A DNA stretch of 64,000 bases from Raja brachyura (lineage: Eukaryota): contig OY740799.1 of assembly GCA_963514005.1 (NCBI GenBank), positions 8,680,001 through 8,744,000 on the forward strand, read 5' to 3'. The notes under the pieces are model-generated. The model searched no databases. It had not been told where the DNA came from and worked only from the letters and a program-made list of their open reading frames with translations. Below are positions 7,388 through 39,704 of this stretch, one piece after another; within the stretch, counting starts at the first letter, position 1, and each line of letters starts with the position of its first letter. The position numbers and the translations under genes were made by a program.

Positions 7388-8680
7388 TTAACAGAATTGA
7401 GAAAATTCAATGTTTAAGCCCAGAGGATGCAGACTCCCCAAGCGGAATATGAGGTGCTGTTCCTCCAACTTGCGGTGTTGCTCACTCTGGCCGTGGAGGA
7501 GGCCCAGGACCGAGAGGTCGGATACGGAATGGGAGGGGGAGTTGAAGTGCTGAGCCACCGGGAGGTCGGGTTGGTTATTGCGGACCGAGCGGAGGTGTTC
7601 GGCGAAACAATCGCCCAGCCTCCGCTTGGTCTCACCGATATAGATCAGCTGGCATCTGGAGCAACGGATGCGGTAGATGAGGTTGGAGGAGGTGCAGGTG
7701 AACCTCTGTCGGACTTGGAAGGACTGCTTGGTTCCCTGAAAGGAGTGGATGGGGGAGGTGAAGGGACAAGTGTAGCATCTCTTGCGGTTGCAAGGGAAAG
7801 TGCCTGGGGAAGGGGTGGAGCGGGAGGGAAGGGAAGAATTGACAAGGGAGTTGCGGAGGGAGCGGTCTTTGCGGAAGGCAGACAGGGGGGGAGATGGGAA
7901 GATGTGGCGAGTGGAGGGGTCACGTTGGAGGTGGCGAAAGTGGCGGAGGACTATCTGTTGTATGTGCCGGCTGGTGGGGTGAAAGGTGAGGACCAGGGGG
8001 ACTCTGCCCTTGTTGTGAGTGGGGGAATGGGGAGAGAGGGCAGTGTTGCAGGGTATGGAGGAGACCCTGGTGCGAGCCTCATCTATAGTGGGGGAGGGGA
8101 AACCCGTTCTCTGAAGAACGAGGACATTTGTGATGACCTGGTGTGGAACACGTCATCCTGGGAGCAGATGCGGCGTAGACGGAGGAATTGGGAATAGGGG
8201 ATGGAGTCCTTACAGGAAGCAGGGTGGGAGGAAGAGTAGCCCAGGTAGCTGTGGGAGTCAGTTGGTTTGTAGTGGATGTCGGTCAGGAGTGTATCACCTG
8301 CAATAGAGATGGTGAGGTCAAGGAATGGTAGGGAAATGTCGGAAATGGTCCAAGTGTATTTGAGTGCCGGATGGAAGTTGGTGGTGAAATGGATGAAGTC
8401 AGTCAGTTGTGTGTGGGTGCAGGAGGTGACATCAAAGCAGTCGACGATGTAACAGAGGTAGAGGTCGGCGGTGGGGCCCTGGTATGCCGAGAACAAGGAT
8501 TGTTCGACGTGCCCGACAAAGCGGCAAGCGTAGCTAGGGCCCATGCGTGTGCCCATAGCTACGCCTTGTGTTTGGAGGAAATGGGAGGAGTCAAAAGAGA
8601 AGTTATTGAGGGTAAGGACCAACTCCGCTAGGCGGAGGAGGGTGTCAGTGGACGGGTATGGGTTGCTCCTCTGGTCGAGG
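7388..8680 (-). pseudogene. Penelope RT / GIY-YIG endonuclease ORF remnant (frameshifted)
   Basis: QTQGVAMGTRMGPSYA, YIVD (degenerate YIDD), LPFLDL, YKPTD; then CNRKRCYTC and SNLIYRIRCSRCQLIYIGETKR...LGLNIEFSQFC-stop (stop at 7388-7390). Confidence 0.9.
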
Positions 8681-8683
8681 AAA

Positions 8684-8938
8684 TGAGTTTCATTGTCTGT
8701 AACCCTTTTTCACCGAGCCACAGGGTAACAACGGCCTGCTTCCTTTATCATCGTTACTTTTTTGCGTATTTTTCATTCATTTTTTTCTGTATCTCCCCAT
8801 ATCATTGATTGTATCTCTCGTTTACCTTTCCCCGAGACTCTCAGTCTGGAGGAGGTTCTCGATCCGTAACGTCACCTATTCCTTTTCTCCAGAGATGCTG
8901 TCTGACTCACTGAATTACTCCAGCTTTTTGTGTCTATC
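8684..8938 (+). mobile_element. Older Penelope 3' UTR (host of the 7059-8683 insertion), decayed hammerhead
   Basis: ggcctgcttcctttatcatcgttactttt...ctggaggaggttctcgatccgtaacgtc...ccagctttttgtgtc; left part lies at about 7030-7058. Confidence 0.7.
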
Positions 8939-26344: not shown

Positions 26345-27680
26345 NNNNNNNNNNNNNNNNNNNNNNNNNNNNNNNNNNNNNNNNNNNNNNNNNNNNNNNN
26401 NNNNNNNNNNNNNNNNNNNNNNNNNNNNNNNNNNNNNNNNNNNNNNNNNNNNNNNNNNNNNNNNNNNNNNNNNNNNNNNNNNNNNNNNNNNNNNNNNNNN
26501 NNNNNNNNNNNNNNNNNNNNNNNNNNNNNNNNNNNNNNNNNNNNNNNNNNNNNNNNNNNNNNNNNNNNNNNGTACATAGACACACACTTACACAAGTACA
26601 TACACACACACATACACATGTATATATATATATAATTTTTTTTATTACAGAGTACCATGTTTCCATATTTTATTGTGCAGCTGCAAGTAAGAATTTAATT
26701 ATTCTGTTTGGGACATGGCAATAAAACGCTCTTGACTCTCGAATATGTTTTAATCTATTCTTCAATACGATGTAGGATCCAGCGTTTATATATTGTCCAT
26801 CCTCAATGGCACTCAATAACTGGTGGTGTGCAACGCTGTGACAATCCATGCACCGTACACACTAGGGACAATTTACAGAGGGCAATTATCCCACAAACCT
26901 GCACGTCTTTGCAAGGCGTGAGGAAACCGGAGCGCCCGGAGAAAACCAATGTGGTCACAGGAAGAACGCGCATAGTCCATACAAATCTTTTCTTGCTTTA
27001 AAATGCTTCCAAATGCTTTAAGATTCCACATATTCACCACCCTCTGGCTGGCTGAAGAAATTGCTCCTCATCTCCATTCTAAAGGAACCTCTTTTTAATC
27101 TGAGGCTGTGTCCTCTGGTCCTCGACTCTGGCACTGATGAACAGAAAGGTCTCCTTCTGTGTTAATAAACAGTGGTTCTATCATGCATGCACATGATGTG
27201 GCCGTCATGCATTATACCCACAAAAATACATATTTTAGACATAAATACTCCATGATAAACCCCAACCTTGAGTCTCGAGGCTGAATCACAGCCAGCCAGT
27301 TTATTGAGTAGGAAGGAGTTGCAGATGCTGGCTTACACCCGTTGCTTCTCTCCAGAGATGCTGCCTGTCCACTGAGGTACTTCGGCAATTTGTGCCTTGC
27401 CACTTCATGGATGCAGCTGAACCGACAAACGTCTCTCGCATAAATTTGGGGGACTAATGAGGAACGGTCCGCTGGCTTCAGGGCTGCTCAGAGGGCAGCC
27501 TGCCAACGGCAACAGAGTCCTCCTACCTCATCCTAGGCTGGGTCTCCACTCCTCGGAGCACAAGGGGGATGAGGGGAGATCTTTTAGAGGTGTTCAAAAT
27601 CATGAGAGGGAATAGATTGGGAAGATGCACAGAGTCTCTTGCCCTGAGTAGGGGAATCGAGGACCAGAGGACATAGGTTC

Positions 27681-27734
27681 GGTGCGGGAGATTGCAACCT
27701 TCACGTGGTCCGCCCTGTTTCGCCGAATGCAATC
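27681..27734 (+). ncRNA. Minimal HDV-like ribozyme (no P4)
   Basis: P1 GGUGCGG/CCGCCCU (G1-U wobble, one mismatch), P2 GAUUGCA/UGCAAUC, P3 ACC/GGU, L3 UUCACGU, J4/2 CGAA. Confidence 0.8.
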
Positions 27735-27817
27735 AACCCCGCGTGCACAATCAAATAAGATCAAATAGACCAAGTTGTCCTACAACGTTAGGCTGTACAC
27801 GCTGTACGCAAGAAGAA
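27681..27817 (+). mobile_element. 137-bp non-autonomous retroelement (Vingi/ingi-like 3' end) headed by an HDV-like ribozyme
   Basis: TSD ggacataggttc 27669-27680 / ggatataggttc 27818-27829; ends tacgcaagaagaa. Confidence 0.75.
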
Positions 27818-28142
27818 GGATATAGGTTCAAGGTGAAGGGGAATAGATTTATTGGGAATCCGATGAGCCCTCCGCAGTTGCCGCTACGGGCGGCCCGATG
27901 TTCAGGGTGATGTAAGTCCGACGTCGGGGCTGGGGGACCTCCTCAGTGGCCTGGACAACAGAGTCGGCCCCCTCCTACCGGAGTCCACGGCTCCCAAAGT
28001 CCGCAGGCCGCGCTGGGCGGAGATACAACGCTGGCGGCCCGCGGCAAAAGCGCAGGCAGGTGGGACTAGCGCAGCTGGGACATGTTGGCCGGTGTGGCCA
28101 AGCTGGGCCGAAGGGCCTGTTTCCACACTGTATCACTATGAC

Positions 28143-36615: not shown

Positions 36616-38879
36616 AGTGTGAGCACAAAGTCGTGAGAGATTCGCCAGAACCTGTGGAGGTCGTGCACTGACAAAGGTGTTACAGTTCAGAAGAGGCATT
36701 AAAACAGAAGCCGCGTGGGCGTAAGAAGGATCTTTGGGGAAAAAAACCCCATGCAGTTATTCCCAGTACCCTGGTCAATATCTAACCTTCACTCTCGACA
36801 TGATGGTAACATCAGAGCGAGCTTGCAGTACACGTACAGCCTGATTGCCCTTTGTATTTCCTCCTTTACAATAACCAGTCGTCAATATTGAAGCACTATT
36901 GGACTGCCATGAAAGAAACCAAAAGGCAACAAAAACGTACGTCCTTTTTGAAAACAAAATCCATTTTCCACTTCACAATCAATAAAGCTTCAATAGCACC
37001 AAACAACAACAATATTCTCCACTGCCTGCATCAAAATAAAAGATCAAAAGTAGTCTGTACCCAAGATTTCTTTAGAATTGCATGAAAGCAGGTGGCTCGT
37101 GTTAGGTCCCAAACGCAAGGCTCTTTAAATAAGTGACTCCGCTTTACAAGATGTTCAAAGGAATGTGTTTCTCACTTTCATCATAGCAAAGGTTCACGGA
37201 CGTAACCCTCAGACTACATCTAAAAGCAACCTGTTTGATGTTGGCTGTGCAATGGGGGGCACATCTCGAGGATATCACGGCGTGCCCTTTGGCATTTTGT
37301 GAAAAGTACAATGAAACAGACGGTGAAGCAAGAGGGGCCTTCGCCCTCATGTGCCAACTGCATTGTGTCCCCATGTCTTAAACTCACGCCTAGGGGGCAA
37401 GGTGGGGAAGGCACAGAAAAATTGGCCTTGTTATCGAGAGGAAGGAGAAATGCTTTGGACTGAAGGAGTATGTAACCAGTGCCCGTCCCGCTGAGTTACT
37501 CCAGCATTTTGTGTCTATCTCCGGCTTAAGCCAGCATCTGCAGTTCTTTCCCACACGATAGTCTGGTCAGTTGGGTGGGAAATAAAATGTAATCCAGGTA
37601 AGTGTGTGGAATTTCATTTTGTGGAGAAGCAACAGGCTAAAGGGATTCAACAATAAACGGGAGAACATTGATGGGTGGATCAATGGGCCTTGCAGTGGTT
37701 GTCTATAGATCTTCAAAGGTTCACTGCACAGATCACAAAGGTGGCTGAAAGACATAAGAGATGCTATCTTCTGAAAGCCAAGGCGTACAATAATCAATGG
37801 GAAACTGCACACAATAATAGTTGAGCAGGTTGGAACTCTATTCCCTGGAGCGCAGGAGGATGGGTGGGGTGATCTTATAGAGGAGTATAAAATCATCAGA
37901 GGAATAGATCGGGTGGATGCACAGAGCCTCTTTTGCCCAGAGTGGGGGAATCAAGAACTAGAGGGCATAGGTTTATGGTTTAAGGTGAGTGGGAGAACAT
38001 TTTATAGGAATCTGAGGGGTAATGTTTCCATGCAAAGGGTGGCAGGTGTCTGGAACGAGCTGCCAGAGGAGGTCGTTGACGCAGGGCCAGATATGGTAAA
38101 TAGGAAGGTCCTTATGTAGAGGGATGAAGAACCATGGAACATTGGTTTAAAATCATTCAAAGAAGGATTAGCGAGCAAATAAAGGGAAAAAAAATCACCA
38201 ATGGTGCTGATTGTATGGAACTCATTGCCTGAAAGAAGAGTTACAGCAGACACATTGTTCACTTTGAAACCATTTTTAAAGAGCAGGTCTGCAGGTTTTC
38301 TAGTCTGCAGATCCAACCTGGTTCAGAAGTTCATTAGTTATTGGAGCGGAATTAGGCCATTCGGCCCATCAAGTCTACATGGCTGATCTATTTTCCCCTC
38401 TCAACCCCATTCTCCTGCCTTCTCCCCATAACCCCTGACACCCGTACTAATCAAGAACAAGGTTGGATTATCCTGGGTAGCTCTTCTCCAGCCAGCACCG
38501 GCGTGATGGGTTGAATGGCCTTGTGCATTTTGTAAACGTTCTGTGACTACCTCTTGCGAATTGTATCCCATTCGCGGGCATCATCCATTTATCTTTAGCT
38601 AAGTGCTTGCATTTATTTGGATTAAGATTCCAATTGATGGAAAGTGTAAATGCAAAGAATCTATATAATAGATCTGAATGGGATCGAGAAGTCACGGTCC
38701 CTCACGGAGCTCAAAGCAAGTGCTCTCAACCTTCAACTTGATTTCTTAGCCACAAAGGACAAATAATCTCTACAACCAAACAGAAATCCAATGGGCCAAA
38801 CCCCATCGTCATTGCATGTCCTTTTCTCATTCAATTTGATCACATTGAACTCCAATGGTGCAGGTACCTGCCAGTATAA

Positions 38880-39704
38880 TGTGGATGCAGTATAATGTGG
38901 ATAAATGTGAGGTTATCCACTTTGGTGGCAAAAACAGAAGGGTAGACTATTATCTTAATGGTGGCAAATTAGAAAAAGGGGAGATGCAACGAGACCTGGG
39001 TGTCATGGTACACCAATCATTGAAAGTAGGCATGCAGGTGCAGCAGGCAGTGAAGAAAGCAAATGGTATGTTAGCATTCATAGCGAAAGGATTTGAGTAC
39101 AGGAGCAGGGAGGTTCTACTGCAGTTGTACAGCGTTTTGGTGAGACCACACCTGGAGTATTGCGTACAGTTTTGGTCTCCAAATCTGAGAAAAGACATTC
39201 TTGCCATAGAGGGGGTACAGAGAAGATTCACCAGACTGATTCCTGGGATGTCAGGACTTTCATATGAGGAAAGACTGGATAGACTTGGCTTGTACTCGCT
39301 AGAATTTAGAAGACTGAGGGGGGATCTTAAAGAAACTTACAAAATTCTTAAGGTGTTGGACAGGCTAGATGCACGAAGATTGTTCCCGATGTTGGGGGAG
39401 TCCAGAACAAGGGGTCACAGTCTAAGGATAAGAGGGAATTCCTTTAGGACCGAGATGAGGAAAACATTTTTTACACAGAAAGTGGTGAGTCTGCCACAGA
39501 AGGTAGTTGAGGCCAGTTCATTGGCTATATTTAAGAGGGAGTTAGATGTGGCCCTTGTGGCTAAAGGGACCAGGGGGTATGGAGAGAAGGCAGGTACGGG
39601 ATACTGAGTTGGATGATCAGCCATGATTATATTGAATGGCCGTGCTGGCTCGAAGGGCCGAATGGCCTACTCCTGCACCTATTTTCTATGTTTCTATGTT
39701 TCTA
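38880..39704 (+). mobile_element. CR1 LINE 3' fragment with open ORF2 C-terminus
   Basis: ORF 38855-39607 WMQYNVDKCEVIHFG...[13 protein letters not shown]...GYGEKAGTGY; (tttctatg)n tail. Confidence 0.92.

Follow-up and report, generated by a model that had tools for sequence, protein, structure and literature searches.

A short repeat in Raja brachyura joins the two ends of a Vingi-type LINE and carries a predicted P4-less HDV-type ribozyme head

The stretch analysed here (the window, 64,000 nucleotides of contig OY740799.1 from Raja brachyura) contains a 137-bp insert that we interpret as a decayed, non-autonomous copy built from both ends of a Vingi-type LINE ~3.1 kb long. Its P4-less HDV-type head likely cuts at its own first base, G1, and thereby likely fixes the 5' ends of the family. 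We assign this reading a probability of roughly three in four, on the basis of a predicted fold, its covariation among related LINEs and the position of genomic junctions.

The insert is flanked by target-site duplicates (Table 1), and the interrupted host sequence had been described in an initial annotation as a CR1 fragment with a 12-bp duplication. When the insert and one duplicate are deleted, a continuous repeat is restored that is present at 14 other places among the fetched loci and the window, in agreement with that description. We take the host repeat to be CR1 from a familiar C-terminal motif, which is also present in a window ORF at 38849-39607. Elsewhere in the window (7388-8709, minus strand), we observed fragments of a reverse transcriptase (RT) and a GIY-YIG-like ORF, presumably those of a Penelope-like element.

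Table 1 Features of the insert and its surroundings, in window coordinates
Feature	Coordinates	Strand	Remarks
Host repeat, CR1-like LINE 3' fragment split by the insert	27560..27870 (bounds approximate)	+	Clade name presumed
Left target-site duplicate	27669..27680	+	12 bp; one mismatch to the right duplicate; family median 11 bp
Non-autonomous element, subfamily A copy	27681..27817	+	
P4-less HDV/CPEB3-type ribozyme fold, predicted	27681..27734	+	Predicted cut 5' of G27681; common to parent LINE
P1, 5' strand	27681..27687	+	Partner 27710-27716; T27683 is a decay change (family G)
P2, 5' strand	27690..27696	+	Partner 27728-27734
P3 and 7-nt L3 loop	27697..27709	+	P3 27697-27699/27707-27709, L3 27700-27706; C27702 predicted partner of G27717 (single-pair P1.1), by likeness to the Rfam CPEB3 consensus
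7-nt linker replacing P4	27717..27723	+	In the family, UUCG loop with one putative closing U-A pair (73/80 copies); broken in this copy
J4/2	27724..27727	+	Predicted catalytic C27724; second base G in subfamily A, U in B, C and the LINE
Remainder of LINE 5' UTR-derived part	27735..27750	+	In the family, potential pairing of 27740-27749 with 27794-27803
Subfamily-specific middle	27751..27779	+	No match to the LINE; 5' arm of a short hairpin
LINE 3' end: last ORF codons and stop, 3' UTR, (GAA)n tail	27780..27817	+	38/38 between majorities
Right target-site duplicate	27818..27829	+	

The first 54 nucleotides of the insert can form a nested double pseudoknot, and the elements proposed for it (P1, P2, P3, L3, G27717 and J4/2) were recovered with the same coordinates and pairings. 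P1 includes a G1·U wobble and one U·C mismatch, and P2 comprises seven Watson–Crick pairs. Run over the window (64 kb, both strands), a descriptor of the HDV fold matched this site only. Shuffling the 54-mer 20,000 times never produced a sequence that satisfied it, which argues that the fold is not due to chance. An Rfam scan of the element returned no HDV match and no CPEB3 match, the latter because its stems differ from those of the CPEB3 model and P4 is absent. The pseudoknot-free minimum-energy fold of the element is unremarkable (z = 0.53); plain folding is uninformative here because pseudoknots lie outside its model. An origin as an ordinary pol III SINE whose fold arose by coincidence seems to us scarcely credible: its length, duplications and microsatellite tail are SINE-like, but A box, B box and T4-run patterns found no match in it (the absence of pol III boxes had already been noted), no shuffle reproduced the fold and the head is the 5' end of a LINE (see below), which contradicts such an origin. 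The Rfam scan likewise returned no tRNA, 5S or 7SL match over the element.

The suggested search for further copies uncovered a multi-thousand-copy family. In the 2.7-Gb genome, a 26-nt head pattern has 6,111 exact matches, a second head pattern 6,788 and a 3' pattern 2,473, and reversed control patterns have none. Because the exact 26-mer head occurs in just 4 of 30 copies chosen by their 3' end, the true copy number is likely in the tens of thousands, as a rough estimate. The family has amplified as several subfamilies, which differ in the middle of the element. Subfamily A, which holds the window copy, is represented by 21 sampled copies lying 6.3% from their own majority, and subfamily B by 25 lying 3.6% from theirs; C and D are rarer, and 16 of 62 copies are unclassified. 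The subfamily-level head changes, at positions 8, 32 and 45, fall in J1/2, at a U-A pair that becomes U·G and at the free base of J4/2, and each preserves the fold. A majority sequence taken from the 32 copies closest to the window copy differs from it at 9 of 137 positions; the P1 mismatch (G3-C in the family) and an A43-to-C change in the short linker are among them. With nine changes, one of which breaks P1, we regard it as a decayed copy and not a master. The family was also found in DNA contigs of four organisms and in contigs from four sequencing runs that we guess to be RNA; such contigs cannot reveal transcript starts or strand.

Subfamily C led to the parent element. Its tail codons read Leu-Asp-Leu-Gln-Leu-stop, and a pattern for this ORF end has 306 matches in the genome. 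Among 20 loci fetched with it, 17 are 5'-truncated LINE ends that share this 3' UTR, and walking upstream yielded L214, a full-length element of ~3.1 kb that bears both the family head and the family 3' end. L214 has a ~105-nt 5' UTR and a single ORF that encodes an endonuclease, an RT and, at its C terminus, a CCHC motif; the ATG ~105 nt past G1 reads into the endonuclease, and the Pfam APE model was matched on the partner's own copies. Between majorities, element and LINE agree at 65 of 70 head positions and 38 of 38 tail positions, so that the autonomous partner sharing both ends, whose existence had been postulated, is now in hand. In subfamily C, everything between a point just past the ATG and the ORF end is simply deleted. 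Because the parent carries the same P4-less head, the element is best described as a bipartite, internally deleted LINE and not, as initially labelled, a SINE, or a SINE whose head was gained separately. A stem between its 5' and 3' parts is predicted (Table 1), but 12 copies contain no compensatory change in it.

Copies of the LINE lie ~5% from their own majority and all located copies are broken; no intact partner was present among 67 matches to the related protein P0002 (45 candidates scored). P0002, a close relative, contains APE and RT domains, and intact relatives are APE-RT proteins of ~1,000 amino acids. RNase H is absent from all three relatives scanned and present in the distant relatives L293 and L294. 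Lack of RNase H is given as a Vingi feature in the accessible part of PMC13708176, and the intact relatives match that description. A 30-row RT tree places the partner and all head-bearing LINEs in one 19-row clade (100/99); its rows include no named Vingi, Ingi or RTE element and its deep order is weak, so 'Vingi-type' denotes a build and not a placement. The Vingi/ingi-like LINE that had been proposed as the mobiliser is matched by the partner in its build (single ORF, APE-RT, no RNase H).

Several observations accompany these searches. A route to the partner through Pfam PF14529 was abandoned, as its top matches belong to an unrelated, two-ORF I-group-like LINE; L092-L121 are members of such a family, which is young (copies 93-98% identical) and unrelated to the element. 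An initial metagenome scan with a single-protein query gave no match. In the partner copies L133, L147, L168, L207, L209, L210 and L219, the 5' part with the head is inverted relative to the 3' part in a twin-priming-like arrangement, and another copy is interrupted at L203:2652-3236 by an intronless coding sequence, which we take to be ferritin-like. The partner's nearest proteins, P0001 and P0002, come from eel (67% over a C-terminal piece) and from another contig, with others ~50% identical to P0002; this closeness may point to horizontal transfer. A subfamily C pattern search returned short copies only, and 14 of 30 were passengers of a larger duplicated block. The block carrying one such copy recurs in many contigs at 95-99% identity (L066, L074, L077-L080, L082, L083, L085-L090). 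In subfamily C (for example, L064 and L067), the LINE start codon is fused in frame to the last codons, creating a 7-codon mini-ORF.

To locate the 5' boundary, we took the first 100 head matches listed and used 80 of them; the pattern spans positions 10-35 only, so that the choice is blind to the 5' end. Eighteen lack a clean 3' end and 10 a called duplication, leaving 52 usable copies. The duplication ends within one base of G1 in 40 of these (exactly before G1 in 23, with a one-base overlap in 9 and one base short in 8) and farther from G1 in 12, a distribution that agrees with the claim that G1 is the first inserted base. Shuffled flank pairs gave any duplication in 2 of 225 cases, and an earlier, BLAST-biased set placed 41 of 54 junctions within one base of G1. 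Duplication length is variable (median 11 bp in the 52 copies). Purines begin 44 of 52 duplications, a figure inflated by the longest-match search, and such starts fit priming at the GAA tail. The bases that separate the duplication from G1 are mostly T, with an extra G in at most 7 of 52. Work on L1 leads one to expect an extra G before G1 when capped RNA is copied; T-rich junctions and a rare extra G fit run-off from uncapped RNA, without proving it. A start at G1 alone does not demonstrate cleavage, because any full-length LINE derivative begins at the LINE 5' end.

These junctions bear on a different account of the head, in which its main role is that of an internal pol II promoter starting transcription at G1 and the ribozyme is secondary or vestigial, as in the dual Pr77/L1TcRz. 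There is a precedent, since the same 77 nt of L1Tc and NARTc act as both ribozyme and internal promoter (accessible text of PMC3383444); the parent LINE, at dispersed sites, must be transcribed somehow, and its head is reduced relative to those of its relatives in having no P4. We nevertheless consider this account unlikely, given the rarity of the extra G and the retention of the catalytic C, G1·U and all stems in every subfamily majority and in the LINE. Promoter and ribozyme roles are also compatible with each other, and because the equivalent trypanosome head serves as both, the description of our element as promoterless lacks support.

Little covariation is found within the family, as copies decay after insertion; the informative comparisons are between subfamily masters and between LINEs. 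An apparent compensation at P1 pair 5 was rejected: C5 occurs in 10 of the 32 best BLAST matches and in none of 80 unbiased copies, and is probably a ranking effect. Heads with other stems and a P4 region are present in L393, a second LINE family of this genome (10 exact matches), and in the metagenome loci L232, L277, L246 and L245. In the covariation check that had been recommended, 7 of 10 P1/P3 pairs are changed on both sides across eight heads, a level reached by none of 500 shuffles (slid registers, 0-3) in a set whose relatedness inflates the shuffle test, three rows being from the element's own family and one (L245) misaligned in P1. Across seven heads, double changes occur at 5 of 7 P2 pairs, and G1·U and a catalytic C first in J4/2 are found in all seven. 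P1.1 can form one C-G pair, as in the CPEB3 consensus, and never covaries across heads. A strict descriptor detected heads at 4 of 21 upstream regions of related LINEs, many of them truncated or decayed; three of these four are probably one locus, and three more candidates were recognised by eye only. We consider the HDV/CPEB3-type fold to be supported by covariation across related LINE heads, of which a small number, distant from one another, are independent.

Three minus-strand descriptor matches in 636 kb of metagenome loci look like chance. The second Vingi-type family in this genome (L393:958-1046, L402-L411) carries an HDV-type head whose P4 region is long and whose stems differ, and L410 resembles a short bipartite derivative of it. 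At least three further Vingi-type LINE families with GAA tails are present in the same genome (L386, L388-L401).

A folded head may still be inactive. The single-pair P1.1 and missing P4 could render it slow or dead, and the fold could be a leftover of the LINE that is kept for protein binding or nuclease blocking, its G1 end being that of the source RNA. Subfamilies A and B also have a U·G wobble at P1 pair 5, and HDV folds shield the 5' ends of R2 templates, according to the accessible part of PMC13708176. This possibility appears to us improbable, more so than the promoter account, given how the active-site strand varies: the C-N-A-A of J4/2 is kept, with a catalytic C in 75 of 80 copies and change at the free position only (N = U in 42, G in 28 and A in 10). 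P4-less ribozymes are, moreover, described as active in vitro (PMC10879173, accessible text). Among sampled copies, G occupies position 1 in 69 of 80, and the full predicted fold (all P1 and P2 pairs, G1, G37 and C-N-A-A) is kept in 42 of 80.

Under the preferred reading of a self-cleaving head, a source copy would be transcribed, with the start either in its upstream flank or in its own head. The head would cleave 5' of G1, with loss of upstream RNA and retention of the ribozyme, as suggested by fold, covariation and junction position. The LINE endonuclease/RT would bind the 38-base 3' end that both elements have in common, with priming at the GAA tail. Reverse transcription would then reach G1, and the copy would land with the 11-12 bp duplication seen in the genome.

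Ribozyme-headed deletion elements are already known, namely NARTc (PMC3383444) and R2 SIDEs (PMC3414825); the comparisons that follow draw on the accessible parts of the papers cited. In trypanosomes, NARTc/L1Tc and RIME/ingi (PMC3383444, PMC4035085) likewise pair a short element with an Ingi-group LINE whose 5' ribozyme head and 3' end it shares, and in NARTc/L1Tc the cut is predicted just upstream of +1, as here. NARTc is 263 nt long with a 77-nt head that includes P4, whereas our element is 137 nt long with a 54-nt P4-less head; the present system further differs in its vertebrate host, a parent without RNase H, a GAA tail and thousands of copies, and its ribozyme and promoter activities are predicted or putative. 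Drosophila R2 SIDEs (PMC3414825) also combine a ribozyme head with a LINE 3' end through internal deletion, but they are rare, confined to rDNA and dependent on R2 or R1 protein, whereas our family is dispersed and tied to an APE-type protein. Non-autonomous derivatives of Vingi-1_EE (cited in PMC5786205) are bipartite deletions of a single-ORF, RNase H-less APE LINE, as is our element. Minimal P4-less HDV-like and theta ribozymes (PMC10879173) share with it the lack of P4, a short J1/2 and a catalytic C first in J4/2; nearly 99% of them are reported to be in phages, often beside tRNAs, in contrast to a vertebrate retroelement with no tRNA-like head. Theta ribozymes are defined by a phage genome and a cut at a tRNA 3' end, whereas here the genome is 2.7 Gb and repeat-rich and a variable target duplication lies upstream. 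A review (PMC6765202, accessible part) mentions HDV-like ribozymes in certain LINEs and SINEs from a range of animals. Our literature search found no Vingi ribozyme, no report of this family and no instance of a P4-less head with a Vingi-type parent in a vertebrate host; Ruminski 2011, Kojima 2011 and Webb 2009, which may list such heads, lie outside its scope.

The noted identity of L3 with that of the mammalian CPEB3 ribozyme is borne out by the RF00622 consensus, which also shares with the element a 2-nt J1/2, a single-pair P1.1 followed by U and the J4/2 of subfamily A, and differs in its stems and in having P4. A closer likeness appears in a related LINE. The head at L277:3251-3323, L278 and L280:2199-2271 scores 55.6 bits against RF00622 (L277/L280; cut-off 35, E = 1.5e-12), and 35 of 37 bases from G1 to G37 equal the consensus, as counted from the alignment. 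A short distance downstream of it lies a broken ORF from the partner's clade. We count these heads as one observation, because L277 and L278 represent a single locus, to which L280 probably belongs as well. As HDV folds require only six invariant bases (PMC8256844, accessible text), this degree of identity suggests that the CPEB3 ribozyme and the L277/L280 head share descent. A Vingi fossil, X12_LINE, is described in the human genome (PMC5753468, accessible text). No CPEB3-like head was present in 14 Raja brachyura loci of three sister LINE families, mostly 5'-truncated. The L388 family, for which the captured sequence includes no head, groups as sister to the CPEB3-like lineage of L278. On the minus strand of L150 near 938, a degraded sequence is similar to the P3-L3-P1 core in the CPEB3 consensus, which may be chance. 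Our literature search found no proposal of a retrotransposon origin for the CPEB3 ribozyme, and the accessible part of PMC10919898 is silent on one. A broader reading, which we offer tentatively and hold at just short of an even bet, is that the Vingi-type clade carries HDV-like heads, that this family shrank its head to a working 54-nt P4-less ribozyme present as thousands of intact cassettes, and that the CPEB3 ribozyme is a domesticated head of this kind.

Our analysis gives P4-less HDV-like ribozymes, so far described almost exclusively from phages, a candidate job in an animal, that of setting the 5' end of a retrotransposon. By extrapolation from the sampled copies, ~3,000 or more members of the family retain the full predicted fold, and those in sense orientation could cut host transcripts. 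The element also defines minimal RNA ends for a Vingi-type protein, which bears on the Vingi-based gene-writing tools that are being developed, as discussed in the accessible text of PMC13708176. Finally, where the CPEB3 ribozyme came from becomes a testable question, given how nearly it is matched by the head of a related LINE.
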